A stretch of 64,000 nt of DNA from a bacterium (GCA_030647205.1 JAUSJO010000006.1:11163-75162), one strand, 5' to 3'; positions 48,576 through 63,538 are shown, counted from the stretch's first letter. Notes: a model not told the origin generated them from the letters alone. A program made the numbers and translations.

Positions 48576-49799
48576 TTACAGATAATCCCTCAGATTGTGG
48601 CGAATGAGATTGTCAGAGATTTTAACACCTCTGGTCGCATTATCCAATACCTCAGGATCGACTACACGAGACAACTCCCGGCCTTCCTTGGCAAAAGCAT
48701 TTAGCTTGCCACCATTGAAGAAACCAACTGCATCTGCAGTGTAGTTGCACTGGCCTTGGTTGAGGTAGTAGGCCGCTTGTTCACCGATGCCGACGATATC
48801 AGCGCCAGCTTCCCGGTATTTCTTGATGTCTTCAAGCTTTATGCCGCTTGAGACAACGAGTTTGAAATCAGCCATTCCGGCCTGATCCAACATTTCACGG
48901 GTCTTTTGAACCACGTGCAGCTTCATACCGGCATCGCTTCCTGAGTTTCCGCCGATAACCGCATCAACAACCGGCTCATCATCCAGATCGGCCTTTGAGA
49001 TATCCATACGGCCGCCCGCCAGTTTGATGCCGAGCATTTCGCACGCTTTCTTGGTTGCTCGGAATGTTTCAAAGCAACCGACACTTCTTGTCACAAAGTC
49101 GCCGAGTACAAAGAGTGGCACATTGGGGTTAGCCCTATGAAAGGCGATAGTAGCGCGAATAGTAGCGGCAACGCCCGGATTATCCGTAACCTCTGCGATA
49201 ACTCTCTCCGTCCGGTCATCGAGCCTTAAAGCCCCCCACATTGCGATTTGGGAGTGGCTTTCCGTGCCAATAACCTTGTCGGCCCAACGCGGAACAGTGG
49301 AGATTATCTCTCCTTCTGATAAGGCTCTTGTAGCAATTGCCAGGTCTTCCTGAGCAAGGTATCTTGCTCCCATGAAGACCCATGGCAACTCGTCCTCATC
49401 ATGAGGGAAGTCAGCCGCGAGGGTCCGAAAACGTGTACCGGTCGTCAGATAATGCAGCAGCGTCTCATTTACTAAGAGACTTCTTGCCGGACCTTCCATG
49501 GTCATCGCCGTTTCGTGCTTCTTGAGAGCATGTCCCTCCGGAACAGAGTAGATCGTGATTGAATCGACATCGTCCGGATGGACTAAGGATGCTAGGGCGC
49601 TCAGGAATTCTTTAACTCCAAAGAACCTTGCCCCTTCGTAACGCTGAAAGAGCCGCCAAAATCCGATAGGATTCTGGTTCTCGGCCGCAAGCGCCTTGAT
49701 GCCTCGTGGAAGATAGATATCGACATCGTCAAATGTCAGTTTCGGCTTTAATGTGTTTACCTTGATGGTCATTTTGTGTCCTTTCTTTTCGCGTACCAC
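48576..49799 (-). CDS. pncB: Nicotinate (or nicotinamide) phosphoribosyltransferase family protein
   Basis: ~400 aa with type II PRTase-family architecture. Context with nadE, pncA and Nudix. Assignment is at family level only. Confidence 0.6.
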   Translation of the reverse strand: MVREKKGHKMTIKVNTLKPKLTFDDVDIYLPRGIKALAAENQNPIGFWRLFQRYEGARFFGVKEFLSALASLVHPDDVDSITIYSVPEGHALKKHETAMTMEGPARSLLVNETLLHYLTTGTRFRTLAADFPHDEDELPWVFMGARYLAQEDLAIATRALSEGEIISTVPRWADKVIGTESHSQIAMWGALRLDDRTERVIAEVTDNPGVAATIRATIAFHRANPNVPLFVLGDFVTRSVGCFETFRATKKACEMLGIKLAGGRMDISKADLDDEPVVDAVIGGNSGSDAGMKLHVVQKTREMLDQAGMADFKLVVSSGIKLEDIKKYREAGADIVGIGEQAAYYLNQGQCNYTADAVGFFNGGKLNAFAKEGRELSRVVDPEVLDNATRGVKISDNLIRHNLRDYL

Positions 49800-50335
49800 T
49801 GTTTTAACAGCAGAAGATTGCCAAACACTTTGTACCCCACTTCTTCACTCTTGGACATTTCCAAAAGCGTTTCATATGCCGTATCAATGGGTAAAAGAAG
49901 TGGTTTTGTCTGTTCGTTGGCTAGTGGCTCTCGGACTTTGACCGCACCACTGGCAACAACCAGAGATACTCTCTCATCTGTTATGCCGGGTGAGTTAACT
50001 AGCCCTCTGTCTCCACCGATTAAAACCTCTGCGTCTTTAACCTCAAATCCTGTCTCTTCCATCAGTTCTCTGACTGCGGTTTCTAACGTTCCTTCACCGT
50101 CAATGTCCAGAAGTCCTGCCGGAAACTCTATTGTGTCTGAGGCGATCAGTGGTCTTGGCTGCTTAACAAGGATAATCTCTTCATCCTCGGTAATAGCGAC
50201 TATAATCACCGCCTGTGGTGTAGAGCGCCGGACGCCAAACCATTTTTTGTTTGTGTCTTTGAAATCTTCATATTCAAGCTCAACGAATCTGGCGAATGGC
50301 GTTTCAGCCAAAACTTTCTCTTCTACTATTTTCAT
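49769..50335 (-). CDS. NUDIX hydrolase, ADP-ribose pyrophosphatase-like
   Basis: Nudix box GLLDIDGEGTLETAVRELMEETGFEV. Confidence 0.75.
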   Translation of the reverse strand: MKIVEEKVLAETPFARFVELEYEDFKDTNKKWFGVRRSTPQAVIIVAITEDEEIILVKQPRPLIASDTIEFPAGLLDIDGEGTLETAVRELMEETGFEVKDAEVLIGGDRGLVNSPGITDERVSLVVASGAVKVREPLANEQTKPLLLPIDTAYETLLEMSKSEEVGYKVFGNLLLLKQWYAKRKDTK

Positions 50336-50374
50336 TTTGTATCTCCTTTTTCTCTATTCTACCTCAATAGGTTT

Positions 50375-50492
50375 TCAAGGTACATTTTTTGGTGATCCTT
50401 ATCGGACCATGTTGTGAGGGGAATCCGACGGTTGCCGGACGCATGCCATTGCTTTAATCCCCCATTCTTTTTGGAAAAGAATAGCCTTTGTT
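50375..50492 (-). promoter_or_regulatory. Conserved ~115-nt element, copy 1: a 38-nt core (tcaaggtacattttttggtgatccttatcggaccatgt) plus hairpins, upstream of the nudix-pncB-nadE operon
   Basis: Near-identical core and the same hairpin architecture as at 50955-51068. The core ends at a TTGAAA -35-like hexamer when read on the minus strand. Confidence 0.55.
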
Positions 50493-50501
50493 TTAAGCTG
50501 C

Positions 50502-50786
50502 TTAGTTGAGAGCCATTTCGGCTTCGACTGCTTGTGTCATACCGCAGATCACGCACTTCTTGACGAAGCGAACCGTGATATCGTCCGGAGCGACCAAACC
50601 CTTACCTTGCCACTTTGCTTCCGGAATCTCCGTAATAGGATCGAAAACGAATTTCGTGAAAGAGTGCAGGCAAGTGCCCTCAATCATCTTCAGTGTGGTT
50701 TTTTGCCGCTTAAGAAAATCCTGAGCCGCCTCGATGTCTCTTTCAGTATCTGCGATGATCCTTCTGAGTGTTTCTGTATTAGCCAT
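50502..50786 (-). CDS. Hypothetical ~94-aa Cys-containing protein (C...CVICG)
   Basis: ORF track (GTG start at 50795; ATG at 50786). Second gene of a two-gene unit downstream of element copy 2. Confidence 0.35.
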   Translation of the reverse strand: MANTETLRRIIADTERDIEAAQDFLKRQKTTLKMIEGTCLHSFTKFVFDPITEIPEAKWQGKGLVAPDDITVRFVKKCVICGMTQAVEAEMALN

Positions 50787-50791
50787 TTCAA

Positions 50792-50905
50792 TCACTCCTC
50801 TTTTCTCTCAATTTTTTCCATAACCGTTGCCAAATCTCTCTCAAGCTTTGAGATGCGTTCCTGCATGGTCATCGGCCTTACAAAAATCTTTTCTCCCTTA
50901 GCCAT
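50792..50905 (-). CDS. Small ORF (37 aa, MAKGEKIFVRPMTMQERISKLERDLATVMEKIERKEE), not in the ORF track
   Basis: ATG 6 nt after GAAAGGCGG. Its stop (TGA) lies next to the downstream gene's GTG/ATG starts. Confidence 0.3.
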   Translation of the reverse strand: MAKGEKIFVRPMTMQERISKLERDLATVMEKIERKEE

Positions 50906-50954
50906 AACAACCGCCTTTCTCAAAAATTTTGATAATCACTAACAGCTTAAGCTC

Positions 50955-51068
50955 TCAAGGTACATTTGTTGGTGATCCTTATCGGACCATGTATGGAGGG
51001 GATCCCCGGGCTTTTGCCCGGGGTGCTTTGCTAAAGCATTATTCCCCTCGCTTCTTTTTAAAGAAGCA
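50955..51068 (-). promoter_or_regulatory. Conserved ~115-nt element, copy 2, upstream of the small-ORF operon
   Basis: Core tcaaggtacatttgttggtgatccttatcggaccatgt, then a P1 stem (gagggga/tcccctc) enclosing two hairpins, and a distal hairpin gcttcttt/aaagaagc. The arms covary with copy 1 (attctttt/aaaagaat). Confidence 0.55.
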
Positions 51069-51091
51069 GCTACAAGATAGGTATCAGCTGT

Positions 51092-51877
51092 CTAAGGTGC
51101 GGTGAAGAATCCACCGGACGTAACAGCCGACTGGCTAACTTGTATAATAGAATCGCTTACCTGTTGGAAGATCTTCCGGATCTCGGAAGGGCTTGTGCCA
51201 ACCGCGATAACGTCATTGAAACCGATCTCGTCAGCAAGACGCTGCACCTCAGCTTCATCCATCATGCCGTATGTGGTAAAACCGACATAGGCGAGAATGA
51301 ATGTCTCTTGAGCGAGAAGGGCCTTGGTGACCTTTCTGACTTCTGTGTTCGTAACTCTTGAACTGTTATCTTCACCATCGGAGAAGACTACAACCACGTT
51401 CTTGGTACGAACACCGTTGGATCTCAGCTGCTGGCCATAAGCGACTATGCCACTTAAGCCTTTGAGAACCGTGTCGTAAAGCGCTGTCCCGCCGTTCGGG
51501 AAGTAGCTGTTATCCAGATTGGGCGCTTGTTCAACCGGCAGGTAGTCGTGAACTAGATCCGATTGGGTATTGAAAATCCAGTCGGAAATGAAGATGCTCT
51601 CTGCCTTTTTGGAACCCCTCAAGGCATCAAGCAGACCTTCATAGCTCTGAACCACTACGTCACGCGCGCCGCTCATCGAGCCGCTACCGTCATGAATGAC
51701 AGAGACTAGTGTAACCTCGTCCTCGGGGATAAGGTCGATCTCTGTACCTTGACAGCCAGCAAGCGCTACTGCATCGAGGTTTGCTACCATGATCTGACTT
51801 GCCTGTTCATCCAGGCCATCTTCTACTGCTTCCTCGAAGAGATCGTTGACATCATTCATATCAGCCATTTTTGTCAC
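51092..51877 (-). CDS. von Willebrand factor A (vWA) domain protein, TerY-like
   Basis: MIDAS motif DGSGSMSG. Cytoplasmic, ~260 aa. Last gene of the PP2C-kinase-pncA-vWA operon. Confidence 0.7.
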   Translation of the reverse strand: MTKMADMNDVNDLFEEAVEDGLDEQASQIMVANLDAVALAGCQGTEIDLIPEDEVTLVSVIHDGSGSMSGARDVVVQSYEGLLDALRGSKKAESIFISDWIFNTQSDLVHDYLPVEQAPNLDNSYFPNGGTALYDTVLKGLSGIVAYGQQLRSNGVRTKNVVVVFSDGEDNSSRVTNTEVRKVTKALLAQETFILAYVGFTTYGMMDEAEVQRLADEIGFNDVIAVGTSPSEIRKIFQQVSDSIIQVSQSAVTSGGFFTAP

Positions 51878-51891
51878 CTCCTCCTTTTACG

Positions 51892-52881
51892 TTAGCCGAT
51901 CGGATCGGTAGATTTGACTAGCCGTACGCCGAGCTTTTCCATTTCGGCGAGTTCGGCATTGGCGATTTCATCGAACGGAACATCGGGATGTTCCACCGAA
52001 GAGGTGCAGTCCATCAGAAAACGGATTTTGCCGAGGATATCATCCTGACCGGCAAAGTGGTTTACGATGGAGCGCATCGTATCCAGCACACAGTGGCTTT
52101 TCGCCTCGCCGGCTACATAAACCAGGTCGTGTCTGGCAACAAGGTCCAGAAACGGAGTGTTTAAGTCACCGGCCGGGTGCTTGGGATACTTTACTTCGGG
52201 TTCTACGATGGAGTAGTTTTCCGTCTGCGGGATAGAACCCTTGACGAGGAAAACCGGCTGCGAACGCCTGGCAGCGGAGTGGAAGGCAATTGCCTCCATC
52301 AGATTCGGCACCAGTGCCTGACCGGGAGTGCCGATCATGCAGTGGAAGGGCCAGATCATCAGGGTCTTCTTGCCGCCCTTGTCGAGCTCTGTCAGGTATT
52401 TCCGCGTCCATACGGGATCGACTACAGGCCTCCACTTACCATCCTCCACGTCTTTCAGCGTGATCATCGTGTAGGGAGCAGGTGGATTCCCGTTCTCATC
52501 TACCCACCATGTGGAGTAGAAGATCTGAACGGGGATATGCGAGTCGATGCTCGAGGCGATGGTCGTCACTTGATCCAGATTCCGAAAAATCCAGTCAACT
52601 GTCCTTTCTACATCACCGAGAGCATTTGTTACCGGAAGGGCGCCGTTCGGGAAGACGAAGTCGACCTGGAAATCTACATTTACCAGGATGACTTTCTGCT
52701 TATCCTCAGTGGCCGGAGCCACGTTCTGCCGGCGGCCTTCTTCCGTTGCTTCTTGGACCTTCGGTAGTACGAGAGATCCCAAAGTAGAGGGATCATAGAA
52801 AGCTGGAGCTTTCATCTTTTGTTCCTCCTTTTGGAAGTAGTTTTTGGATTTGGCTAACAAGTTTATTTTGCCTTGCCTCAC
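51892..52881 (-). CDS. pncA: Nicotinamidase PncA (isochorismatase-family cysteine hydrolase) with N-terminal extension
   Basis: ILVNVDFQVDF (catalytic Asp region), IWPFHCMIGTPGQAL (PncA WPxHC signature), VAGEAKSHCVLDT (catalytic Cys). Its start overlaps the kinase stop by 4 nt. Confidence 0.7.
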   Translation of the reverse strand: MRQGKINLLAKSKNYFQKEEQKMKAPAFYDPSTLGSLVLPKVQEATEEGRRQNVAPATEDKQKVILVNVDFQVDFVFPNGALPVTNALGDVERTVDWIFRNLDQVTTIASSIDSHIPVQIFYSTWWVDENGNPPAPYTMITLKDVEDGKWRPVVDPVWTRKYLTELDKGGKKTLMIWPFHCMIGTPGQALVPNLMEAIAFHSAARRSQPVFLVKGSIPQTENYSIVEPEVKYPKHPAGDLNTPFLDLVARHDLVYVAGEAKSHCVLDTMRSIVNHFAGQDDILGKIRFLMDCTSSVEHPDVPFDEIANAELAEMEKLGVRLVKSTDPIG

Positions 52882-54722
52882 CTCTTTCTTATCAGGAATA
52901 CTTTATTGTCGCTTACGACAACGATATTCCCCTGAAAGCCGTGGAGTTTTTCATCTCCCTGGATGAATTTGTCAGTTCCGGTAAACTCGAAAGTGCTACC
53001 TTTTGTGAGAGACTTTCCTTTTAGCCCATTTGCCGTGGCAAAAAGAAGCGAACCATTACCTAGGGTCGCACCCTGTAAGTTACCGTGATCTTCATCATTG
53101 TATGGTTCACGACTCTTAAAGAGAGAAACGCCTTTGTCACTTATATAATCAAGTAGGACAAATGCTTTACCTTTCTTTTTCGTCTCACGGATAACCAGAG
53201 TGCCCTTGGTGTCAAACCGGGCATTTAAGGAAACTAGCTTCTCGCCTTTCTCGAGTTCCCTAACATCAGCTTCATAACTGGCTCCGTTTATCAGGACCCG
53301 GTAGACCCACTTATCGAATATCCGACTAACCACTACGAGCTTTTCTTTGTCACCAACAGTTTCTCCATGAAACCAGGTCTGTTCATCGGCTATAGTGGTA
53401 ACAGTTCTGCTAACGAGATTCCCTGCCATCATTTCTGACTTTAGGAGAATACCGCCGGCCGCTCTGTATAGTGAGTCTTTAGTGCCGGATTTTACGGGAT
53501 AGTTTTGGAACAAATCGGTTGTGGTTTTTGTAACCACTGAACCATCATCTGTATCCAAGACTATCAGTCGCTCGGAGCCTTTTCTCAACAAAATTACTTT
53601 GTCGAGAGCAATGTCGAAACCCAGATCGGGAGCTACGGGGAAAAGAACAGTCTTCTGTGTTTTTCCTCCTCTCCATGTATGTAGCACTGCCATTCCATTC
53701 TCGTAGGCAATAGCATAAAGCTTGTTGCCAACTAGTTTGGAGTAGATAAAATGCCCGGACGTCTCAGAAATCATAGATATCTCATAGTCGAGAATAATCT
53801 TCTGATTTATTACAAACGCCGACTTTGTGCTGCATACCGGGCACTGACGCCTACTGTGAGGAAAATACTCATGACACTTAGGACATTCTATTAAGATGCC
53901 GTTATATTCCTCGAGAATGTTCTTTGGAAGTTGGCCTATACGGCCTTTTTCGAAAGTTTTCTCGAAGTATTCAAGCAGTGCGTCAGAAAGTATTTCCCTA
54001 CTTAGGGCAAATTTCGGATAACGCACATCTTTATCAAATGCAGTTACTTTCTTTTTTGCCCTTTCGGTCAGCTGGTTTATCTTGGGGTGAACACCTCCGT
54101 AAGGATGGACTAGAAGTAGTGAACGGAACAGAAGCACTGCGAAGCTGTACCAGTCCGTCTCGGGGGTAAAGACCAAACCACTGGTAAGATCTTTATTATA
54201 GAGAGCCGGACTTAGGAATGGCTCTGTTGCCACTTGGCAAGGAAACCGATCAAACTGAAAGCTATCTACATCTATGAAATAGACTTGGTCTTTCAGGAAG
54301 ATCTCGTTTAAGTCATTTAAGTCTCCAACCACGAAGCCGGCTCTGTGCAGTTTTTCAACTGTACTATAAGCATTCAGAAAGACATCAGTAACATCTTTGA
54401 TATTGATTCCGCTGGTTTTTCTGAAGTTTCGATTGCTCAGTTTCGCCAGCGGTTCTGCCCCAGGATCAGCAAGTGGCATCATATATCCAACCACTCTGCC
54501 GTTTCCTTCCGCTTTTACCAGTTCACGAGGTGCAAGCACCCGATCCGGTAAAAGCGGCCCTTTCTTGAGGAGAGCTTGCAGTTTCTGTGTTTTTTCTCTG
54601 CTCGGCTTGTGGAATATCTTGTATGCAGCCTTTCCTTTCTTTATTACTACTGCCTCGCCACCGGTTCCCAGCACATCTTTCGGGTTGAGATTGATGACTT
54701 TTCCCTGCACCACGACTCTCAT
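52878..54722 (-). CDS. Protein kinase-like (Ser/Thr kinase fold) protein with central zinc-ribbon and a large C-terminal beta-rich domain
   Basis: Gly-loop LGTGGEAVVIKKGKAAYKIF, catalytic-loop-like HRAGFVVGDLNDLN, and a DFG-like IDVDSF. Then CPKCHEYFPHSRRQCPVC. 614 aa. Confidence 0.65.
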   Translation of the reverse strand: MRVVVQGKVINLNPKDVLGTGGEAVVIKKGKAAYKIFHKPSREKTQKLQALLKKGPLLPDRVLAPRELVKAEGNGRVVGYMMPLADPGAEPLAKLSNRNFRKTSGINIKDVTDVFLNAYSTVEKLHRAGFVVGDLNDLNEIFLKDQVYFIDVDSFQFDRFPCQVATEPFLSPALYNKDLTSGLVFTPETDWYSFAVLLFRSLLLVHPYGGVHPKINQLTERAKKKVTAFDKDVRYPKFALSREILSDALLEYFEKTFEKGRIGQLPKNILEEYNGILIECPKCHEYFPHSRRQCPVCSTKSAFVINQKIILDYEISMISETSGHFIYSKLVGNKLYAIAYENGMAVLHTWRGGKTQKTVLFPVAPDLGFDIALDKVILLRKGSERLIVLDTDDGSVVTKTTTDLFQNYPVKSGTKDSLYRAAGGILLKSEMMAGNLVSRTVTTIADEQTWFHGETVGDKEKLVVVSRIFDKWVYRVLINGASYEADVRELEKGEKLVSLNARFDTKGTLVIRETKKKGKAFVLLDYISDKGVSLFKSREPYNDEDHGNLQGATLGNGSLLFATANGLKGKSLTKGSTFEFTGTDKFIQGDEKLHGFQGNIVVVSDNKVFLIRKR

Positions 54723-54725
54723 TTC

Positions 54726-55451
54726 TCACCCTCCTTCCGTCTGGATTTTCTCGATCGTTATCAAGGTTGCATCGTCTGAGAAGTGCTTTTTCTTTGAGTA
54801 AACGTTTAAGAGGCGCTGAACTCCATTTGGATGTTCTTTGCCCCAGAACTCGTTTATCAGCTCCGGCTCAAAGCCGTCACTTGCTATGGCAACTCTCTGA
54901 ACTTTCTGCAGATTAACCTCTATCCTCTTGAAACTGACTTGCTTTCCGAATAGACGGTAAGCGAAGTAGGCCGGTGTGTTATCCTCATCAATGACGAGAA
55001 CATCATCATCAATGAATATAGTTCCATCACCGCTTGAGAATATCACCAGTTTTTTTCCGTCAGTCACAAACCCTAAAATAGTGGCCAAGAGATTATCTTG
55101 GACAAATGGAGTCTGCCACCAGCCCCTTGAAAGTTCATCGAGAAAATCACCTGTTGAATCTTCGATGTGATCAACGATCTCTTCCAAGGACCATCTTTGG
55201 CATATTCTCGGAACTGTGCTTTCACCAAGAATGCTTACTACCCTTTGAACAATGAGATTTGCCCCGACCTCGCTGGTCTTGGCGCTCCCGCATCCATCAG
55301 AGAGAATACCCGCTCGGAGGATTTTTGGTTCTCCGAACAGCGACTTGATTGGTTCCGGCTCATAGATCTGGTAAGCATCCTGACAGTTTTTACCTATCAA
55401 GGAATGTTGCCTTCCTATAACCTTGCCTCCCCTTATTCTAAGAGTGTCCAT
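54726..55451 (-). CDS. PP2C-family (PPM) Ser/Thr protein phosphatase
   Basis: GRQHSLIGKNCQDAY (the RxxxxNxDA motif), SDGCGS, IASDGF, DDATLI. Confidence 0.75.
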   Translation of the reverse strand: MDTLRIRGGKVIGRQHSLIGKNCQDAYQIYEPEPIKSLFGEPKILRAGILSDGCGSAKTSEVGANLIVQRVVSILGESTVPRICQRWSLEEIVDHIEDSTGDFLDELSRGWWQTPFVQDNLLATILGFVTDGKKLVIFSSGDGTIFIDDDVLVIDEDNTPAYFAYRLFGKQVSFKRIEVNLQKVQRVAIASDGFEPELINEFWGKEHPNGVQRLLNVYSKKKHFSDDATLITIEKIQTEGG

Positions 55452-55561
55452 TTTGCTTCCCTTCTATAGGTTTTAGCGATTCTTTTGTCAAAGTCCTCAT
55501 TGGTTTGATATTATCGCTCCTTTGTAATTGTTACACATACACTAACTCTTTCTATCAATAT

Positions 55562-55582
55562 ATAGTGTTTATATAACACTAT
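55562..55582. promoter_or_regulatory. 21-bp palindrome aTAGTGTTtatatAACACTAt (candidate NrtR-type operator, site 1) upstream of the PP2C-kinase-pncA-vWA operon
   Basis: Perfect 8-bp arms. The same half-sites recur at 55611-55629 and 57647-57665. Confidence 0.55.
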
Positions 55583-55610
55583 CTATTCTGGTTATAAAAT
55601 ACACAATGAT

Positions 55611-55629
55611 TAGTGTATATGTGACACTA
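55611..55629. promoter_or_regulatory. Palindrome TAGTGT-atatgtg-ACACTA (candidate operator, site 2)
   Basis: Read from the sequence. Lies 49 bp from site 1. Confidence 0.5.
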
Positions 55630-55697
55630 TTATACGCTCTTAAAAATCGTTGTCAAGAACTTTTTTCAAAAAAGTCTTATTTTCCCCTATTTCGTGC

Positions 55698-56384
55698 TTA
55701 TTTCTTTAAGAATTGTCCAAATGGATTGCTAATAAATCGAATGTCTTTGTCCGTGAACTGATACATTATTGCCGGACGATGAGCGCCACCCTCTTTCATC
55801 TTTGTGGCCTTGATCATTCCGGTACTTAGGATCTTTCTTCTGAAGTTTCTTTTATCGATATCCCGACCCAAAACTATCTCATAAACTTTCTGAAGATCTG
55901 TCAAAGAAAAGTATTTGGGGAGCAAACTATAAACAACATTTGTATATTCCATTTTCCAGACTAATCTTTTTGTCGCATAGCTCAGTATTTCATTATGATC
56001 AAAAGCGAGTTTTGGAATCTTTTTTAAAGGCTGCCATTTCAATCCTTTAGTATCTTTACCGTTTTTAGCAGACACTGCTTCGGCGCTGACAAGGGCAAAG
56101 TAAGCAATGGAAATTACTCTTCCTCTTGGATCTCTTTTTGGGTCACCAAACGTATAGAGCTGCTCCAGATAGACGTCCTTTACTCCTGTTTTTTCGAATA
56201 AAGTTCTCTGAGCCGCCTCTTCGAGATCTTCTTTTTCACCTACAAAACCTCCCGGAAGAGACCATCCTTCCGGTCCATATGTCCTCTCTACCGTTAAAAC
56301 ATTCAGCTCGTCGTCAATGATCGTAAAGATAACTACGTCCGTAGCAACTGATGGAGGGATAAAATTGTCTTTTTTTCTGCTCAT
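55698..56384 (-). CDS. nrtR: Nudix-related transcriptional regulator NrtR-like (Nudix domain plus C-terminal winged helix)
   Basis: Degenerate Nudix box GGFVGEKEDLEEAAQRTLFEKTGV. C-terminal LTDLQKVYEIVLGRDIDKRNFRRKILSTGMIKAT...GGAHRPAIMYQF matches the NrtR wHTH pattern as I recall it. Sits within an NAD-metabolism neighbourhood. Confidence 0.6.
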   Translation of the reverse strand: MSRKKDNFIPPSVATDVVIFTIIDDELNVLTVERTYGPEGWSLPGGFVGEKEDLEEAAQRTLFEKTGVKDVYLEQLYTFGDPKRDPRGRVISIAYFALVSAEAVSAKNGKDTKGLKWQPLKKIPKLAFDHNEILSYATKRLVWKMEYTNVVYSLLPKYFSLTDLQKVYEIVLGRDIDKRNFRRKILSTGMIKATKMKEGGAHRPAIMYQFTDKDIRFISNPFGQFLKK

Positions 56385-56776
56385 TATATTGCTCCTATGC
56401 TTTTCATATATTCTTCATATCTTCTGACAAACTCCTCGATATCATCTTTGTATACCCTAACTTCATGATAATCATCCGGATTGCCCTTTATCCCAATTCC
56501 ATCCCCTAAATAGGGGTATTCATCAGAAAAATTTTTGTTAATATAGCGGCTGCCGTACTGGCTTTGTTTGCCTAAAAGATCATGCGATATCACACCAAAT
56601 TTTACAAATCCTTCCTGATCTATTTCTGCAAAAATTTCCGGTAATTCTCCACCTCTGTTTTTTCTATGCCAATCATCATTTTCCTTTGCTTTCTCTAGAG
56701 CTTCTAACACCCGAGTATGCAAATCCTTTTCTTGAACCTCCTCTTGTCCTTCTTCTGTTTTTGGTATTTCTCCCAT
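56384..56776 (-). CDS. Hypothetical 130-aa protein between nadK and nrtR
   Basis: ORF track. Its stop overlaps the nrtR start. Confidence 0.4.
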   Translation of the reverse strand: MGEIPKTEEGQEEVQEKDLHTRVLEALEKAKENDDWHRKNRGGELPEIFAEIDQEGFVKFGVISHDLLGKQSQYGSRYINKNFSDEYPYLGDGIGIKGNPDDYHEVRVYKDDIEEFVRRYEEYMKSIGAI

Positions 56777-56807
56777 ATGTTTGATTTAACTACTATTTAA
56801 ATTTTCC

Positions 56808-57647
56808 TCAGTTTTTGTCATATGCTCTGACGGCTACATTATGGTTAGATAAGTTAAACTTTTTCTCTAACGCCTCATAAAAATGATCTTTGTTAAAAAG
56901 AACCATACGATAATAATGAGATTTTCTAAGCTTCACCACATCTCCCTCTTTTAGAGGAATACCCTTTGATCCGTCAACAGAAAGAAATGCTTCTTCTCCC
57001 TCGATATTTTTAAGCTCAGTAACCTCCGTCTCAGGCACCAGGATTGTGGGGACAGGAAGTCCCTGCGGGCATATGGAAGTGACAAAGAAACATTTTACAC
57101 CCGGAGCGGCAATAGGCCCCCCGGCAGAAAGGTTATATGCGGTGGAACCTGTTGTCGTAGAAACCAAAACGCCGTCTCCTCTAAACTTTACCCGATGAGT
57201 GCCACCCACAGAAACCCCGACAGTTACAACCGAAGATAATCCCTTCACCACTACATCATTTACAACATAATCTGACCTGACAAGATTGCCCCCACTCATA
57301 AGGTCAGCTAAGATCCCGACCCTTTCCTGCAAATGATAATCTTTGCCTTCTTCGCCCTTAACAAATTGAAGAACCTTCTCGGCCGCATCCTCTTCCTCAA
57401 CCACCGCTAGAAATCCTACTCTACCGGCATTAACACCTAAAATAGGGATGTCTTTTTCTTTGGCAAATCGTATTGCTTCTATAATAGTACCGTCACCACC
57501 AATAGCAATAACCGCCTGAACGTCATGATCAGCTTCTTTTGCCGGAACGACTTCTACACCTTCTTTATCCAAAGCAGAGGCAATTACCTTTGAGATCTTG
57601 ACTGCTTTTTCCCTGCCCTCATTTACAACTACTGCTATTTTTTTCAT
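56808..57647 (-). CDS. nadK: NAD+ kinase NadK (PpnK)
   Basis: GGDGT, NDVVV and TTTGSTAYNLSAGGPI motifs. The start is taken at MKKIAVVV (the ORF track extends 15 codons further, to 57692). Confidence 0.8.
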   Translation of the reverse strand: MKKIAVVVNEGREKAVKISKVIASALDKEGVEVVPAKEADHDVQAVIAIGGDGTIIEAIRFAKEKDIPILGVNAGRVGFLAVVEEEDAAEKVLQFVKGEEGKDYHLQERVGILADLMSGGNLVRSDYVVNDVVVKGLSSVVTVGVSVGGTHRVKFRGDGVLVSTTTGSTAYNLSAGGPIAAPGVKCFFVTSICPQGLPVPTILVPETEVTELKNIEGEEAFLSVDGSKGIPLKEGDVVKLRKSHYYRMVLFNKDHFYEALEKKFNLSNHNVAVRAYDKN

Positions 57648-57665
57648 AGTGTTATTATAACACAT
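57647..57665. promoter_or_regulatory. Palindrome TAGTGTTattatAACACA (candidate operator, site 3), abutting the nadK start and containing a TATAAT -10-like hexamer on the minus strand
   Basis: Same half-sites as sites 1 and 2. Also sits in the divergent region shared with the NMNAT-like/MTase gene. Confidence 0.5.
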
Positions 57666-57742
57666 CATATCAAAGTGTCTATTGATCTTCATGCCTCAAA
57701 GATCTAATGCTATAATAACTGAGAAGGCATAACTATAAATCT

Positions 57743-59344
57743 ATGACATATATATTATTTCCCGGCAGACATCACCTCCTAACAAACTTTCAATTTGATT
57801 ATCTAAATCAAATAGCCAAAGAAGGGTTAGCGGGTATAAAAGATATTGATGGTAAATCCTTCTCGCCAAACGAGAAAGTTGATGAAGTTGTTTTCGCTAT
57901 TACCTCTGCAAATCACGCAAATACCAGAAGGAATCCATTGCCGCTATATCAAAGAGCAATGGCTGTCCAAGATTTCTCGCACGATCTCCCTATAAAAACC
58001 ACGATATACGATATTAACGATATCGGGGTCAGCGAGAGCTTTGCCGACTATGTTCTAAAGAGAATCTATAGCCGCAGTGAGGGAAGCCTAAAACTAACTC
58101 CCGATAATACTATTGTCGCATGCTCTACACCTGTGCTTGAAATGTACAAGAAACTAGGCTTTAGGATCTTACCCGTAGAACTCCTATCCAAAGATTTCAA
58201 AAGATATGCAGACAATTTGCCATGGGAAATAATCGAAGAAGTCGCAAATATCCAAGACAACTGGATGGAGAATAAACTATATAAGGGAAAAACCCATCCA
58301 GCCTCGAAAAGACTATGGGAAACTTATGATATTGGAGACAAAGTCCAGCAGCTCTTTAGAGACACTATAATAGGAGAAGATGGCGATATTACAGAGACTA
58401 GAGATTACAATACCTATGTGCGTTCCATGGATCATAGTACCGAACAAAAATACTCCGAAACTTCAAGTTTTGTCAAACCGGGGAGAATTGGCGACATCGG
58501 ATGTGCCGTAGGATCATGGATCAAGTTTGCCTGCCAAGACTCAAGACTGGCAGAGTCAGATTTCTATGGGATAGAAGTGACTAGAAAACTCTACGATATT
58601 TGCGAACAAAGAAAGGATAATGGAGAGTTTTCTAGTGATTACGTGTTTTTCTCAAGAAAAAATGCCATAACCGGCCTGGTCTTTGAACCCGATAGCATGG
58701 ATAGTATCCTAACATCATCCCTAACTCATGAGATAGAATCTTATGGAGGCAGAGGAGATCTTCTTAAATTTATTAAAAACCGAGCTGCCGAGTTAAATGA
58801 GGGGGGACGATGGATAAACAGGGACGTTGTCGGCCCGGACGATGGTAGCAAAACTGTATATTTGGAGCTAAACTCTTCAGATGGAAGGAATGATGACTAT
58901 GATCAAGCAATTGGAAACCGAGATAAGTTAAAGGAATATTTAGACGGTCTATCTACTTATGCTAAATTTTTACGATTCTCCAAAGATTTTAGGAAAAATG
59001 AAAGCGAGCAGGTCAAATATGAAGCTGTCTCTATTGATAATAAAAACCTGATTAAACTACAGCTAAAAGATGCCTGTGAGTTTGTGACTAAAAAGGACTA
59101 TACCGACAACTGGCAAAGTGAAATGCATGAGACTTTCTGTTTCTGGAGTTTTGATGACTGGAAACAACACTTGGAAAAGGCCGGGTTAAAGGTTCATCCG
59201 CAATCAAAAGCTTTCGTAAATCCGTGGGTAATCAAGAAGCGGGTCCAAGGGAAAGTAAAACTCTATACACTACAAGACAAAACACTAAATGAAATCGATT
59301 ATCCTGTCAGTAATATGGTCTTAGTCGCCGAGAAACGCCATTAG
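57743..59344 (+). CDS. Fusion protein: N-terminal NMNAT-like (cytidylyltransferase-fold, NadM-like) domain plus C-terminal class I SAM-dependent methyltransferase domain
   Basis: N-terminus ILFPGRHHLL... and VVFAITSANHANTRRNPLPLYQRAMAV align to archaeal NMNAT IGIGSAQ.SHT.KNPFTAGER..M. C-terminus has MTase motif I (IGDIGCAVGSW), post-I acidic (FYGIEV), motif II and motif III (LNEGGRWI). Confidence 0.55.
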   Translation: MTYILFPGRHHLLTNFQFDYLNQIAKEGLAGIKDIDGKSFSPNEKVDEVVFAITSANHANTRRNPLPLYQRAMAVQDFSHDLPIKTTIYDINDIGVSESFADYVLKRIYSRSEGSLKLTPDNTIVACSTPVLEMYKKLGFRILPVELLSKDFKRYADNLPWEIIEEVANIQDNWMENKLYKGKTHPASKRLWETYDIGDKVQQLFRDTIIGEDGDITETRDYNTYVRSMDHSTEQKYSETSSFVKPGRIGDIGCAVGSWIKFACQDSRLAESDFYGIEVTRKLYDICEQRKDNGEFSSDYVFFSRKNAITGLVFEPDSMDSILTSSLTHEIESYGGRGDLLKFIKNRAAELNEGGRWINRDVVGPDDGSKTVYLELNSSDGRNDDYDQAIGNRDKLKEYLDGLSTYAKFLRFSKDFRKNESEQVKYEAVSIDNKNLIKLQLKDACEFVTKKDYTDNWQSEMHETFCFWSFDDWKQHLEKAGLKVHPQSKAFVNPWVIKKRVQGKVKLYTLQDKTLNEIDYPVSNMVLVAEKRH

Positions 59345-59358
59345 AAAAGTCTATGTCT

Positions 59359-60339
59359 TCATTTTTTAATGAGACCCGGAAACATAACATCAGCAAGATA
59401 ACTTGCTACATTTCTCGATTTTCCTTTACCCGGCATCATGTGCATGCTCAGTCCCGGGTTTGAGTTGACCTCAACAATACCATAACTAGACTTTGTTTGT
59501 GGCTCATCAATGTTTTCGGTCATTATATCTAAACCAATAAAAGGTAAACCTTGAAAAACATCTAACACTTTTTGAGCAATGTCGATAACTGAACTATGCA
59601 CTTCATCTGTAACGTCTTCACTCACTCCTCCCTTAGCCAAGTTTGAGGTCTTTCTTAAATAAATCTTTTCATCTTTTTTTGGTATATACCTGAGATCTTT
59701 ACCAGACTCCTTAAGAAAATTATCAACCTGCCTGTCAAACACAATTGGACAGAGATATCTTTTTTTACGGTCGTCCCTCTTTTTTGACTCGATCTCACCC
59801 AACTCACTTATATTATGTTTACCGTCACCTATAACATGAGCTGGGTCTCTATTAAGAACAGCGTACTTTCCTTCTATAGTAATAAAAACCCGATATTCTT
59901 TGCCGGGGAGATGTTTTTCTACAAGGAAGAGCGTGTTTACACCTGTTTCTTCTTCTAAGTGGTTGACGGCCGACACAAGTTCTCTTTCATTTTTTATCTC
60001 TACAAAAACACTGTCGCCATGAGAACCCCAGTTTGGTTTGACAACTACCGGAAATCCAATCTTTTGAGCGTACTCTACAGCTTCCTTAAATGAATGCGCG
60101 CTAAAAACTTCTCCTTCCGGAGCGCTGATTCCATTTTTCCGAAGAAGATTTTTCGTAAGATATTTATCAGCAGTCATTTTAACCAGATTATAGGGTGAGA
60201 GAGAACTGAACCTATCCAAAAGGAACTCCTTTCGCCCCTCATAAATTACTTCAATGAGTTCTATTTCCGGGTCAGCATCTCTAACTTTGGCCCCACGTCT
60301 TTTAAGTTCATCGACTAGAAGTTTTTGATTGGTATGCAT
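59359..60339 (-). CDS. ATP-grasp family ligase (cyanophycin-synthetase N-terminal / RimK-like)
   Basis: GFPVVVKPNWGSHGDSVFV, HVIGDGKHNISELGE, EVNSNPG are ATP-grasp hallmark segments. Confidence 0.7.
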   Translation of the reverse strand: MHTNQKLLVDELKRRGAKVRDADPEIELIEVIYEGRKEFLLDRFSSLSPYNLVKMTADKYLTKNLLRKNGISAPEGEVFSAHSFKEAVEYAQKIGFPVVVKPNWGSHGDSVFVEIKNERELVSAVNHLEEETGVNTLFLVEKHLPGKEYRVFITIEGKYAVLNRDPAHVIGDGKHNISELGEIESKKRDDRKKRYLCPIVFDRQVDNFLKESGKDLRYIPKKDEKIYLRKTSNLAKGGVSEDVTDEVHSSVIDIAQKVLDVFQGLPFIGLDIMTENIDEPQTKSSYGIVEVNSNPGLSMHMMPGKGKSRNVASYLADVMFPGLIKK

Positions 60340-60371
60340 CTTACCTGTCGAGTATTAAATGTGGCATCTTC

Positions 60372-60890
60372 CTAAGATGACTCACCATTACTATTGATTA
60401 TCAAGCCTCTCCCCGTAGATCTTCCCCCACCGTACCTTCCTCGGTCTGCGCTACCCGACTCACCAGAGGAGTTGCTAGTATTAAATACACCCTTCACTCT
60501 ACCCCCACTCCCTGACTCGTCACTCTTTTCTCTAGAAGACTTACTTTCTGACCTTTGGGCTCTACTGGCTTCCGATTCCCCCATATCACGAGCTGACGAC
60601 TCTCCCTTTTCTGCCTTCCGCTCACCCTCACTATCTGATAACTCTTTCTTTTTTTGATCGATCGTGCGATCAAGTATCTGATTGTCTAAAATCCTCGCCT
60701 TGTCGAAATCTCCGGCATCGAGCGCTTTTCTAAGAGCCCTACGCAGGTCTTTAAGACTCTGGCGCTCCTTATCAGAAAATTCACGGTTAATCTCACCTCT
60801 AGTTCCCTTTTCACCTTTACGGACAATACCCCCTGACTCACCGCTTGTTTCTCGGGGTGATTCGCCTCCTTCACTCATTCTCTCCAACAT
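60372..60890 (-). CDS. Low-complexity S/E/R/G-rich (predicted disordered) protein
   Basis: ORF track. Compositionally biased. Confidence 0.35.
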   Translation of the reverse strand: MLERMSEGGESPRETSGESGGIVRKGEKGTRGEINREFSDKERQSLKDLRRALRKALDAGDFDKARILDNQILDRTIDQKKKELSDSEGERKAEKGESSARDMGESEASRAQRSESKSSREKSDESGSGGRVKGVFNTSNSSGESGSADRGRYGGGRSTGRGLIINSNGESS

Positions 60891-60936
60891 GTTCTCTCTC
60901 CCAATTAGTTAAATTTATAATAACACTGAGACCACA

Positions 60937-61620
60937 CTACTTGCAATAAATAGCTACCTTATGCTCTATTTTGCTGCCTTGGACCCTATGTTTTGCTTCT
61001 TTCCCCCATATAAAACCTATAACTTTTCTTGCCTCATCTAGATCCTTAAATTCAAAAAATGTTGTGAAATGCGAGTACTCTCTGAAGCCGTTTTTAACCA
61101 ACCATTCGTTATATTTTTTAGTTCTTTCCAAGGGATCGTTGGTCCTTCCTCTTATTTGTTCAAACTCACCACCTGTATCGTTCTCGACTAAAAATATTTT
61201 GCCTCTCGGCTTCAAGGTTCTTTCAATGTTACAAAGTATATCCTTCCTTCTCTTTTCGTCCTCAACCGTCCCCAATACCCAAGAAGCAAGAGCCACGTCT
61301 ATACTTTTGGATGGTAGCTTCATATCCTCTGCCTGAGTATGCACAAAGTCTATATTATCGTACCCATCAGTGTCTTTTTCTGCCAAGCTAAGCTGATCTT
61401 TCGAGGCGTCAAGAGCCACAATCTTCGGAGCATACGGAGCAAACAGTTTTGTATATTTACCAGAACCGCAACCAAGATCTAGGAGTGTCTTACCTTTCAT
61501 TTCTGAAAGTAATGTTTCAAATATCTTGCCAGGTGCATCCTCTCTTGCACTGAAAAGCCGATAGATCCCGGCCTCTTCATAATAACTTTTCGACTTTTCC
61601 CCTAGACTATACTTCTTCAT
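60937..61620 (-). CDS. Class I SAM-dependent methyltransferase
   Basis: Motif I LLDLGCGSGKYT, post-I acidic residue (ALDAS), motif II/III. Confidence 0.75.
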   Translation of the reverse strand: MKKYSLGEKSKSYYEEAGIYRLFSAREDAPGKIFETLLSEMKGKTLLDLGCGSGKYTKLFAPYAPKIVALDASKDQLSLAEKDTDGYDNIDFVHTQAEDMKLPSKSIDVALASWVLGTVEDEKRRKDILCNIERTLKPRGKIFLVENDTGGEFEQIRGRTNDPLERTKKYNEWLVKNGFREYSHFTTFFEFKDLDEARKVIGFIWGKEAKHRVQGSKIEHKVAIYCK

Positions 61621-61621
61621 A

Positions 61622-63538
61622 TTACACCTTTACTTTCTCGAGATAGGCGATCGCATCCCGATACCCCTTGCCCATAGCACTATCAAAAACAAATTCTTTA
61701 TACCTTGTCCCTTCTATCCCCCCAAACACTTCTTTCCGTCTCTTATGATCGTTGATTTCATTTCTTTTCTTTGAATTATTTTTACTATCGAAGTCATAAA
61801 TATAAGCGAACACTATTTTCCCACCAGTTTTTAATTTTCCCAACAATACAGAGACAATCAGATTCTTAAATTCCGACAAATAATCATCCGTGTTAAACAT
61901 CAGATGCGTATAATCAGAGATATTTGAAAGAATTATAAGATCAAACGTTTCATGCCCGTCTAACTCTTGCCCTAAATTCTTAAGCGATGAAGAAACCCAG
62001 TGATAGCAACCTTCCTTTATGCGTTTTTGAGCCTTACTATATATAACTTCATTCTCCAGATAGAGATTATTGCTTACTTTCCTCTGCTTCTCGTCATATA
62101 TGTTGTTAAATATTTCTGATTCGCGGAGTTTTTCCCCATTGAAATCGAAACGTTCGTAAGCCTGATTAAAAAAATATCTGGCCTGAAAGGATATATCTCC
62201 TTTAACTTCATTGTAGTTATTATACGAAAGAACCTCTTCTCCTTTATCCCTCATTAAAAAATTCTTAAAGGTATTAAGTCCATGACTCTTAAGATAGGCT
62301 ACTTTAAGCTCGGTAAAGTATTGAGCTAAAAGATTTATATCGAAACATTTTACATTATTTGCGCCTAGAAGATACGCATTGATAAGGTGGTCTCCTGAAG
62401 CTCCTACGGTCAGTACGCTCTTTTCTTTAAAATCAAACTTAGGGAAATAGCCTGCTATATTTTCCGTTGTGAAAGAGTAAATCTTGTTATACTCACTGAA
62501 TTTAGGACGCCCGGTTGTCTCATGCAGATGCTCTTCAAAAAAACTGTCAAGTTTCTGCGCGTCTTTTGTCTCATCGATCGCTTCCATCGGACAGTAATCA
62601 ATATTTGCCAAAGCAAGGCGGTCGACCAGAGAACGGTAAGACGATATCTCTTTTGATTTTAGAATCTCATCTAGCCCGTATTTGTGTAAATCTTTGCCAC
62701 TTACATACTGAGGGGCTCTTTCCGTAACCCAAGTACAAGGTGAGACACGACCCTTATGATCTATCGATAGAAATTTATCACCCCCCGGACAAACTCCATC
62801 AACTTTTTCTCCTATCTTTTCGGTAAAACTATGACTTACTTTTATATGTTCCTTGTATTTTTTTGTCAGTATTTCTATCTCATTTTTTAGATCAGTAGCT
62901 AATCTTAAAGAAATAAGATTTTTATTGCCTCTTAGCCTCCCCACTGGCTCAAGCCGAGAGAAGATCACCTCATCTACCCCCAAATCAATGCAAAGCTTGA
63001 CCATATTTTCCATTTTCTCTTCATTTTGAGCAAATATTAAAGAACCCACTCTCGTATATAAACCGTGTTTGACTAGGCTTTTTATCCCTTTAGTTGTTCT
63101 CTCGAAGGACTTTTCTCCTCTCACAATCTCATTTAGTTCTGGCGTGCAGCCGTCTAAGCCAACATGTATCATACTAATATTTAGTTTTTTTAGTTTACTT
63201 GCCAGCTCATCATCGATGACTGACGCATTTGTGGAAATATCAGTCTTTAATCCAACCTTATCGGCAAATATCATTAGTTCTAAGATGTCTTCTCTCAAGA
63301 ATGGTTCTCCCCCAGTAATCTTGAGGTGCGTTATCCCGGCGCTCTTTAGATCTTTGATACATTTTTTCACTTCTCCAGTACTAAGCTCGTCTTTTGGCTT
63401 TTTGGCGGTAGAGCTGAAGATGCAGTGAGGACATCTATAGTTGCATCTGTTGGTTATCTCCCAAATCACTCTCCCTCCATCCTCCGGGATTCGAAATAGA
63501 CAAAATGCATATTTATTTTTTGTAGATATTTTTACCAT
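61622..63538 (-). CDS. Radical SAM / SPASM(twitch)-domain protein fused to a C-terminal SAM-MTase-like (Rossmann) domain
   Basis: CNYRCPHC (CxxxCxxC), ITGGEPFL, auxiliary-cluster region CPGGDKFLSIDHKGRVSPC...C. The C-terminal ~300 aa have MTase-like motifs VLTVGASGD, FDLIILSNISDY and LKTGGKIVFAY. Confidence 0.7.
   Translation of the reverse strand: MVKISTKNKYAFCLFRIPEDGGRVIWEITNRCNYRCPHCIFSSTAKKPKDELSTGEVKKCIKDLKSAGITHLKITGGEPFLREDILELMIFADKVGLKTDISTNASVIDDELASKLKKLNISMIHVGLDGCTPELNEIVRGEKSFERTTKGIKSLVKHGLYTRVGSLIFAQNEEKMENMVKLCIDLGVDEVIFSRLEPVGRLRGNKNLISLRLATDLKNEIEILTKKYKEHIKVSHSFTEKIGEKVDGVCPGGDKFLSIDHKGRVSPCTWVTERAPQYVSGKDLHKYGLDEILKSKEISSYRSLVDRLALANIDYCPMEAIDETKDAQKLDSFFEEHLHETTGRPKFSEYNKIYSFTTENIAGYFPKFDFKEKSVLTVGASGDHLINAYLLGANNVKCFDINLLAQYFTELKVAYLKSHGLNTFKNFLMRDKGEEVLSYNNYNEVKGDISFQARYFFNQAYERFDFNGEKLRESEIFNNIYDEKQRKVSNNLYLENEVIYSKAQKRIKEGCYHWVSSSLKNLGQELDGHETFDLIILSNISDYTHLMFNTDDYLSEFKNLIVSVLLGKLKTGGKIVFAYIYDFDSKNNSKKRNEINDHKRRKEVFGGIEGTRYKEFVFDSAMGKGYRDAIAYLEKVKV

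Follow-up and report, generated by a model that had tools for sequence, protein, structure and literature searches.

What controls the genes of nicotinamide adenine dinucleotide (NAD) metabolism that lie on the minus strand of a 64,000-nucleotide stretch of DNA from an uncultivated bacterium (GCA_030647205.1, JAUSJO010000006.1:11163-75162)? In this stretch, hereafter the window, a first unit made of nadK, p130 and nrtR is followed, after a gap of 246 bp, by the genes for a PP2C-family phosphatase, a 614-residue protein kinase, a 307-residue nicotinamidase-type protein that we call PncA', and a von Willebrand factor A (vWA) domain protein; these four are referred to below as the tetrad. A sequence-only reading of the window had drawn attention to a recurrent palindrome, found at the promoters next to an NrtR-like regulator gene. 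Judged from sequence analysis, the palindromes are very probably the operators of this locally encoded NrtR-family repressor, which would act on two promoters, that of nadK-p130-nrtR and that of the tetrad operon.

Four predicted operators at two promoters

The window was searched for TAGTGT-N7-ACACTA with at most two mismatches, with shuffled sequence as a control, and was scanned in addition with a position weight matrix. This pattern, part of the 21-bp consensus wTAGTGT-N7-ACACTAw, describes the sites better than the form first put forward, TAGTGTT-N5-AACACTA, and it occurs four times, in both promoter regions that flank the nrtR operon. The palindromes are not the product of chance, since four were found where 0.19 were expected and none of 100 shuffles yielded four. 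The same four have the best matrix scores of the window (25.3, 25.0, 15.8 and 13.1 bits).

The predicted operator O1 (55610..55630, TTAGTGTATATGTGACACTAT; 25.0 bits) is invariant in L002 and L004, two loci of relatives (loci of relatives bear L-numbers throughout) whose NrtR proteins are, respectively, 80% and 69% identical to that of the window; in its core stretch (55611-55629, TAGTGTATATGTGACACTA) both the TAGTGT and the ACACTA cores are perfect. O2 (55562..55582, ATAGTGTTTATATAACACTAT; 25.3 bits; core stretch 55563-55581, TAGTGTTTATATAACACTA), a perfect palindrome, is predicted in the 5' leader about 48 bp downstream of O1, and is kept at the same spacing in L002, L004 and L086. A further 37 bp downstream comes the weaker candidate O3 (55525..55545, TAATTGTTACACATACACTAA; 15.8 bits), with two mismatches, whose core stretch (55526-55544, AATTGTTACACATACACTA) is kept in all close relatives (L002 and L004) and to which a third site of ACAAT type is equivalent in L090. 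Predicted operator O4 (57646..57666; 13.1 bits) belongs to the nadK-p130-nrtR promoter, whose -10 element, TATAAT(A), forms the 7-nt spacer of the site. The site ends with the A of the nadK ATG, and the distal half of its core stretch (57647-57665, TAGTGTTATTATAACACAT) is degenerate (ACACAT). A 19-nt stretch of O4, TGTGTTATAATAACACTAT, is invariant in L002 and L004, where all four operators are present in the same order, with spacings of 47-48 and 37 bp.

The three palindromes originally noticed are all present (55563-55581, 55611-55629 and 57647-57665), the first two at 112 and 160 nt from the PP2C start codon, as had been estimated, and the third overlapping, again as described, a TATAAT that abuts the nadK ATG at 57647; the weaker site at 55526-55544 had escaped notice. 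The statement that the half-sites are identical holds for the 6-nt cores of 55563-81 and 55611-29 and fails for 57647-65, with its divergent distal half.

A fifth and weaker palindrome (TAAGTGTCTTGTCAACACTTT, 10310-30), with two core mismatches, gives the next matrix score, 12.9 bits, and the remaining positions of the window all fall below 7 bits. It lies between queA and a gene for a 183-residue protein, has a TTGACA inside, and may represent either an NrtR site of low affinity or a coincidence.

The tetrad operon has a sigma-70 promoter at 55629..55656 (minus strand) in which TTGACA and TATAAT are separated by 16 nt (12 of 12 matches), and which is kept in L002, L004 and L086. O1 begins on the last base of its -10 box and spans the expected transcription start; the leader that follows is about 170 nt long and contains O2 and O3. 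A second candidate promoter in this leader (TTGACA-17-TATAGA) was rejected, as it is conserved in neither L002 nor L086. The nadK-p130-nrtR promoter (57654..57681, minus strand) reads TAGACA, 16 nt, TGtTATAAT, that is, an extended -10 form with 11 of 12 matches. Here the -10 is followed by 6 nt and then by the A of the nadK ATG (57647), which occupies the usual position of a transcription start. With this A standing 7 nt after the -10, a leaderless and autoregulated nadK-p130-nrtR mRNA is predicted, and the nadK transcript is probably leaderless. The hint of a leaderless nadK given by the sequence-only reading fits the promoter geometry, and the design is repeated in five relatives: in L002, L086, L087, L088 and L090 the nrtR operon begins with a gene preceded by an operator that holds TATAAT and ends in ATG. 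In L004, where nadK is relocated, the equivalent operator stands before p130, and a short leader intervenes. In every other lineage examined (L086, L211, L212, L024, L138, L223 and L226) the operators overlap the -35 box, the spacer or the -10 box, an arrangement that a repressor would be expected to show.

Each 21-bp site would be bound by a dimer of the 228-residue NrtR protein, by way of the C-terminal winged helix. Bound to O4, this dimer would occlude RNA polymerase at the -10 and the start codon, and nadK-p130-nrtR would thereby be autoregulated. At the other promoter, O1 would act from a position adjoining the -10 and covering the start of the tetrad operon, and O2 and O3 could be extra or cooperative sites.

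Conservation of the motif in distant relatives

The motif was then sought in a distant set of 79 loci with nrtR homologues (1.15 Mb in all, 48-57% identity), from Woesearchaeota, Nanoarchaeota, Patescibacteria, Chloroflexota, Acidobacteriota and Abditibacteriota. Sites of at least 18 bits number 57 in this set and exact cores 26, reversed sequence giving none of either, and 29 of the 57 sites lie within 400 bp of nrtR, an interval that makes up 9.8% of the sequence. Over some 190 loci, the genes found downstream of sites are nrtR (39), pncA (21), the nicotinate phosphoribosyltransferase (NAPRTase) gene (13), PP2C (6), nadE (6), pnuC (4), nadK (3) and nadA (3). The motif is enriched around nrtR homologues and mostly precedes nrtR and NAD genes; the expectation that NrtR-type palindromes of about 21 bp stand before NAD-salvage genes is borne out by sites before pncA, pncB, nadE, pnuC, nadK and nadA. 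Rodionov et al. (2008) described NrtR motifs as lineage-variable 21-bp palindromes, mostly with a GT-N7-AC core (PMC2330246), and the window motif has this core. It differs from the picture given for the family in that one operator sequence is common to homologues from Candidate Phyla Radiation (CPR) bacteria, Chloroflexota, Acidobacteriota, Abditibacteriota and DPANN archaea, so that NAD regulons should be directly predictable in a large part of the uncultivated diversity.

Could the palindromes be something other than NrtR sites, such as AT-rich inverted repeats arisen by chance, RNA hairpins or terminators, or sites bound by another transcription factor? They are indeed rich in A and T, like the intergenic DNA around them; O2 and O3 lie in transcribed sequence and can form hairpins; and tandem copies of the motif stand before radical S-adenosylmethionine (SAM) genes in short contigs that show no nrtR. 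Nevertheless, about zero sites are expected from the shuffled and reversed-sequence controls, the motif is found together with nrtR in archaea and across bacterial phyla, and stems of 6 bp with AT loops of 7 nt make poor terminators, the more so as they are located at promoters and not at 3' ends. We regard such an origin as very improbable indeed, and retain the palindromes as operators of NrtR.

Tandem TAGTGT-N7-ACACTA sites were also seen before two gene families of another kind. One family encodes a 340-residue SPFH/Band-7 protein and was met in 11 metagenome loci (L037, L067, L116, L119, L123, L124 and L134 among them), several of them divergent to nrtR or near it; the other encodes a 478-residue radical-SAM protein and was met in 15 metagenome loci, all short contigs without nrtR in view (among them L097, L101, L110, L167 and L201). 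Both families may be further, non-NAD members of the regulon of this NrtR clade. In addition, arrays of 4 to 7 palindrome copies with a period of about 24 bp occur in L141, L171, L184, L191, L193, L199 and others; these contigs were left out of the regulon census.

The regulator and its effector

The nrtR gene (55698..56384, minus strand) encodes a 228-residue protein with a Nudix-like domain, matched by PF00293 NUDIX (E value 4.6e-18, residues 17-134), and an NrtR winged-helix domain, matched by PF21906 NrtR_WHD (5.7e-24, residues 152-210). The latter, in the C-terminal part, is the DNA-binding domain of NrtR type. The description of the protein as an NrtR-like regulator built of a Nudix and a winged-helix part is further upheld by full-length alignments to known structures, since it aligns end to end with SoNrtR of S. 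oneidensis (3gz5, 2.7e-33) and with BtAraR of B. thetaiotaomicron (5bs6, 8.8e-39). The NCBIfam NrtR model NF050029 gives 180.6 bits (E value 3.5e-53), under the equivalog cut-off of 400 bits; on profile evidence, the protein is a member of the NrtR family and not an equivalog of the set curated by NCBIfam.

Its Nudix box is degenerate (RTLFEK against REUxEE), as in the two closest relatives, whereas distant ones keep RELxEE. Catalysis is usually lost in characterised NrtRs (PMC6800001). With the contact residues of SoNrtR and AraR taken from PMC4666351, the ADP-ribose contacts Arg41, Lys76 and Arg98 of SoNrtR correspond to R34, K65 and R87 of the window protein, that is, three of the four mappable contacts are kept; two of the equivalents of Arg41/Lys76/Arg98 are lost in BtAraR, according to the alignment (PMC4666351). 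By analogy, we infer that ADP-ribose would be the effector. During NAD consumption, ADP-ribose or a related NAD-derived nucleotide would bind the degenerate Nudix domain and cause the protein to release DNA, and this release would, if the characterised NrtRs are a guide, de-repress both NADP synthesis and nicotinamide salvage, the latter leading from PncA' to the NAPRTase-like protein p398 and then to NadE.

Several points weigh against the reading as developed so far. O3 and O4 score low, at 13-16 bits. Motif matches from the same loci in which sites were later counted served to train the weight matrix, and therefore the reversed-sequence control and the exact-core counts are the unbiased figures. 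The role given to the kinase, the PP2C and the vWA protein is a hypothesis that comes from gene linkage and shared operators only. Structured intergenic regions of 296 and 166 nt separate the vWA gene from the downstream Nudix-p398-nadE genes, and read-through of the transcript that starts at O1 is uncertain. As to the regulator, its top-scoring solved relative is not SoNrtR but the arabinose-responsive AraR, and Asn43 of SoNrtR is replaced by an aromatic residue, Y36, as in AraR.

These last two features belong to an alternative in which the sites are still NrtR operators but the effector is not ADP-ribose; NAD+ as a co-repressor, or some other metabolite, would take its place and alter the physiological logic. 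NdnR of C. glutamicum senses NAD+ as co-repressor, and AraR senses arabinose. The better E value of BtAraR among solved structures goes in this direction, as does the tyrosine at position 36, which resembles Phe36 of AraR, a residue that fills the phosphate pocket (PMC4666351); NrtR-family members with different effectors are documented (PMC4666351). However, R34, K65 and R87 match the SoNrtR contacts to phosphate and ribose that AraR has lost, and the conserved targets are all NAD genes, sugar-utilisation genes not being seen among the examined loci. An effector of another kind thus seems rather unlikely to us, and ADP-ribose remains the preferred one.

A tetrad with its own nicotinamidase

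The tetrad opens with the gene (54726..55451, minus strand) for the PP2C-family phosphatase, of 241 residues (PP2C_2, 8.3e-14). It is followed by the Ser/Thr protein kinase gene (52878..54722, minus strand), whose 614-residue product consists of an N-terminal kinase domain, a CxxC...CxxC zinc ribbon and an unassigned C-terminal region of about 300 residues. Direct family hits of the kinase are weak; its family profile, A11, matches 49 PDB chains, all of them Ser/Thr kinases (best 1.6e-5), and the zinc ribbon, CPKC...CPVC, was read from the sequence after the kinase domain. The third gene (51892..52815, minus strand) encodes PncA', a long-form nicotinamidase of 307 residues in which the Asp/Lys/Cys triad and the metal ligands are intact: D48, K192, C242, D91, H93 and H158 are invariant. 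The family profile, A5, matches 8 PDB sequences, all nicotinamidases (2h0r at 4.7e-8, 3pl1 at 2.4e-6), and PncA' is apparently an active salvage enzyme. It shares with the nicotinamidases PncA/Pnc1 (2h0r, 3pl1, 1ilw) the catalytic triad, the Asp-x-His plus His metal site and the WPxH(C/T) motif, and differs from classical PncA in being about 120 residues longer, through an N-terminal extension and an insertion, and in being missed by the Pfam Isochorismatase model. In some genomes (L086, L173) it coexists with a classical PncA. The last gene (51092..51868, minus strand) encodes the 258-residue vWA-domain protein, with residues of the metal ion-dependent adhesion site (MIDAS) type (DxSxS, T, D) that are invariant in the family. 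Its Pfam VWA match (E value 0.0015) is under the Pfam cut-off and its profile matches only vWA/I-domains, weakly (E values 0.05-0.08); the L212 orthologue carries PF00092, and the vWA assignment is weak but consistent. Family profiles were used because PDB searches with single sequences gave nothing for the vWA protein, nor for a 533-residue protein discussed below, and noise for the kinase.

The TerY-P triad was reportedly described by Anantharaman, Iyer and Aravind in 2012, and to our knowledge the biochemical role of TerY-P-like modules has been hypothetical ever since. The tetrad resembles it in joining a vWA protein (weakly assigned here), a PP2C and a Ser/Thr kinase with a zinc ribbon in a three-gene set (PMC11090510). 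It departs from it in having a nicotinamidase gene as a fixed fourth member, in the extra C-terminal region of about 300 residues of the kinase, which is outside the family definition, and in being associated with NAD salvage genes and NrtR operators instead of tellurite resistance, McrBC/CoCoNuT or DNA-processing systems. A full-text literature search found no paper on prokaryotes in which nicotinamidase, vWA and PP2C are linked. Our hypothesis is that the kinase, the PP2C and the vWA protein form a TerY-P-like phospho-switch, co-expressed with the nicotinamidase, and that this switch most likely tunes the activity of the nicotinamidase, or reports on it, after translation. The presence of these proteins and a dedicated nicotinamidase under an NAD-linked repressor would give the TerY-P-like module a concrete, testable function.

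The inclusion of the kinase/phosphatase/vWA triad in the NAD regulon, as first proposed, agrees with the distribution of the tetrad: in about seven independent lineages its genes come after operators of NrtR type (the window with L002 and L004, L086, L211, L212, L138, L223-225 and L226). In L212 (Candidatus Chlorohelix) the tetrad has its operator and no nrtR within 8 kb, while in L223-225 and L226 it stands alone in unrelated genomic contexts. The order is permuted to PncA'-vWA-PP2C-kinase in L138, where identity is down to 26-33%; the permuted tetrad of L173 neighbours NAD genes with strong sites in front of them, and the site closest to the tetrad itself is about 700 bp before PncA'. A PP2C gene comes after nrtR and two operators in L017 (Patescibacteria) and L024 (Abditibacteriaceae), and both contigs end there. 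PncA' is also found without the triad, directly after nrtR in L031 (Chloroflexota) and alone in L213.

Between the window and L002 or L004, the tetrad proteins are more alike (94-96% identity for PncA', 87-95% for vWA, 75-88% for the kinase) than their neighbours (69-80% for NrtR, 66% for NadE, 57% for the Nudix protein), and the stretch from 48 to 54 kb has a G+C content of 47.5% against about 40% in its flanks. This conservation of the tetrad could reflect either recent lateral exchange or unusually strong constraint. PncA' and the kinase also occur together in six contigs flagged as viral in IMG/VR (L214-L219; 26-234 kb, 29-57% G+C), five of which have the vWA gene as well; PP2C was confirmed in L216 and L217, and L216 (4729-10361) reads NMNAT-PP2C-kinase-PncA'-vWA-NadE, where NMNAT is nicotinamide mononucleotide adenylyltransferase. 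NrtR operators were not found in these six contigs.

Another way of seeing the tetrad is primarily as a mobile conflict module, either a TerY-P-type anti-phage defence or a phage counter-defence that restores NAD, and NrtR would then couple the module to NAD depletion. TerY-P-like triads are known to work as anti-phage systems in their own right (PMC11090510, citing Gao 2020), and the occurrence of the tetrad in L214-L219 and alone in unrelated contexts (L212, L223, L226), the closeness of its proteins to those of L004 (87-96% identity) when compared with NrtR (69%) and NadE (66%), and the higher G+C content of the region all point the same way. Against this, L214-L219 are viral by the IMG/VR flag alone, none of the PADLOC defence models matches the four proteins at E values up to 0.01, the tetrad is nearly always within or beside NAD salvage genes, and it contains what appears to be an active salvage enzyme. 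A search of PHROGs with the tetrad proteins gave only families without an assigned function. We consider a primary role in conflict rather unlikely. A more far-reaching reading is plausible and still falls short of being probable: the tetrad would be a conserved, horizontally mobile signalling module of NAD homeostasis, a TerY-P-type phospho-switch with nicotinamide deamidation as its output or its input, induced through NrtR when NAD is broken down, to which, in the lineage of the window, a hitherto undescribed leader RNA of 115-120 nt, possibly a riboswitch for an NAD-related ligand, would be added before the downstream salvage genes. If true, this would be the first defined metabolic context for TerY-P-like triads, and a link to the theme of NAD depletion in phage-host conflict.

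NrtR regulons described so far comprise genes of NAD synthesis and salvage, pentose utilisation and ADP-ribosylation. The system predicted here is of the known NrtR kind. Like SoNrtR (3gz5/3gz6) and the NrtR of M. smegmatis, the regulator combines a Nudix-like sensor with a winged-helix domain, and its Nudix box is degenerate as in MsNrtR and the S. suis proteins; the operator is a 21-bp palindrome with a GT-N7-AC core, placed at the promoter or between promoter and start codon; and the predicted targets are its own gene and salvage genes of the pncA, pncB and nadE types. What appears new is the cross-phylum conservation of the operator and of the regulon's content, the fusion of the autoregulatory operator to the -10 and the start codon in a leaderless design, and two additions to the regulon. 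One is nadK, which is not mentioned in Rodionov et al. 2008 (PMC2330246); a full-text literature search for NrtR and nadK returned, as the sole paper naming both, a review on NAD in plants and mammals. The other is the PP2C/Ser-Thr kinase/vWA set with its own nicotinamidase paralogue, and NrtR control of a TerY-P-like module appears not to have been described. The operator fused to the -10 and start codon would offer a compact example of leaderless autoregulation.

Salvage genes and a candidate structured RNA

In the first unit, nadK (56808..57647, minus strand) encodes an NAD kinase of 279 residues from the ATG at 57647, a start codon chosen from the L002 homologue and the position of the promoter. 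The gene p130 (56384..56776, minus strand; 130 residues) has no family hit, and a single base is common to its stop and the nrtR start; in L004 the nrtR operon begins with p130. The NAD cluster downstream of the tetrad, also on the minus strand, is made of genes for a Nudix hydrolase (49769-50335), for p398, a divergent, weakly NAPRTase-like protein of 398 residues (48576-49772), and for NadE (47722-48489). Relatives without the tetrad have NAD genes directly after the operators, in the order nrtR, Nudix, p398, PncA, NadE, NadK in L087 and nrtR, PnuC, AAA_28 kinase, NMNAT, NadK, Nudix, p398, PncA, NadE in L090.

Downstream of the vWA gene, on the sense strand, lie two copies of a candidate structured RNA of 115-120 nt (50951-51070 and 50371-50485, minus strand). 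Other copies are found in L002 (8022-8144 and 9027-9143), L004 (15308-15426 and 15872-15987), L086 (10509-10618) and L211 (9727-9830), each of them just upstream of a small open reading frame or of an NMNAT, Nudix or p398 gene. Five helices make up the architecture: a hairpin stands at the 5' end, two more are enclosed by a long-range helix (GGGGA/UCCCC), and a further hairpin comes last. A conserved 3' tail, CCAA-N2-5-GUACCUUGAAAAC, follows just upstream of the Shine-Dalgarno sequence. In an alignment of eight sequences from five related genomes, built by hand and fitted to the structure, 94.7% of the cells are paired, where shuffles give 79.5% and sliding the partners gives 47-56%, and 19 of the 35 pairs have changed on both sides; the covariation score, 0.439 against 0.179, was reached by none of 500 shuffles. 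The G·U pairs fit the sense strand only. Rfam 15 gave no relevant match to the candidate, either at the gathering threshold or at E values up to 10, and a covariance model, R1, run over 2.1 Mb of loci retrieved only the training copies and weak partial hits in L086, L090 and L223. Partial copies, consisting of a hairpin and the tail, are present in the PP2C leader of L086 and, weakly, upstream of the L090 NMNAT gene.

In several predicted folds the tail pairs with the Shine-Dalgarno sequence, and it may therefore act as an anti-Shine-Dalgarno element. The candidate may be a riboswitch or an anti-Shine-Dalgarno leader of NAD-salvage genes. Like the NAD+ riboswitches (Rfam nadA, pnuC), it would be a structured element in the 5' leader of NAD-salvage genes near the ribosome-binding site; it differs from them in its lack of an Rfam match and in its five predicted helices with the long-range GGGGA/UCCCC pairing. 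If it binds a ligand, it would join the very short list of NAD-related riboswitch classes. The tail sequence CCTTGAAAA was also considered as a -35 box and rejected, there being no consistent -10 after it.

Two small open reading frames, of 37 and 94-97 residues, lie between the vWA and Nudix genes (50502-50905, minus strand) and are kept in L002 and L004 with 76-77% identity. The larger has a C-terminal CVICG motif, and neither has a family hit.

The part of the PP2C leader downstream of O3 (55452-55525, minus strand) is about 90% identical in L002 and L004, which exceeds the conservation of the NrtR protein. It holds an AGCGAT/ATCGCT stem and a degenerate copy of the hairpin plus tail, ACCAAUGAGGACUUUGACAAAAGAAU, of which L086 has a clearer version (6127-6164). 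An independent RNA element in this leader was rejected, as Rfam has no match to it and L086 does not keep the stem; the conservation is better accounted for by a recent sharing of the entire module.

The divergent gene and the region beyond

On the other side of the nadK promoter, a divergent gene (57743..59344, plus strand) encodes a 533-residue protein with a weakly NMNAT-like N-terminal domain and a class I SAM methyltransferase. By family profile, the N-terminal domain resembles the archaeal NMNAT MJ0541 weakly (E value 0.013), and it lacks the HxGH motif. In an AlphaFold2 (AF2) model with a pLDDT confidence score of 84.5, the C-terminal half matches methyltransferase folds (E value ~1e-9). 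The sequence-only reading had noted that this gene shares its divergent upstream region, and so the site there, with nadK. Control by O4 is not supported in the window: the gene has its own promoter 22-50 bp past the operator edge (TGcTATAAT at 57708-16, candidate -35 at 57688-93), clear of O4, and no other scoring site is found there. A homologue is divergent to nrtR in three Woesearchaeota loci (L007, L069 and L080), and membership of the gene in the NrtR regulon of the window is uncertain. The 533-residue family is large (1956 hits of about 530 residues), reaches 55-58% identity in Bacteroidota (Cytophagales) and Spirochaetota, and is annotated merely as 'transferase'.

Beyond this gene, on the opposite strand, lies a cluster (59359-63538, minus strand) with an ATP-grasp ligase similar to the ligase domain of cyanophycin synthetase/GshAB, a 172-residue low-complexity protein rich in Ser, Gly and Glu, a class I methyltransferase and a 638-residue radical-SAM protein; it may be a peptide-modification cluster.

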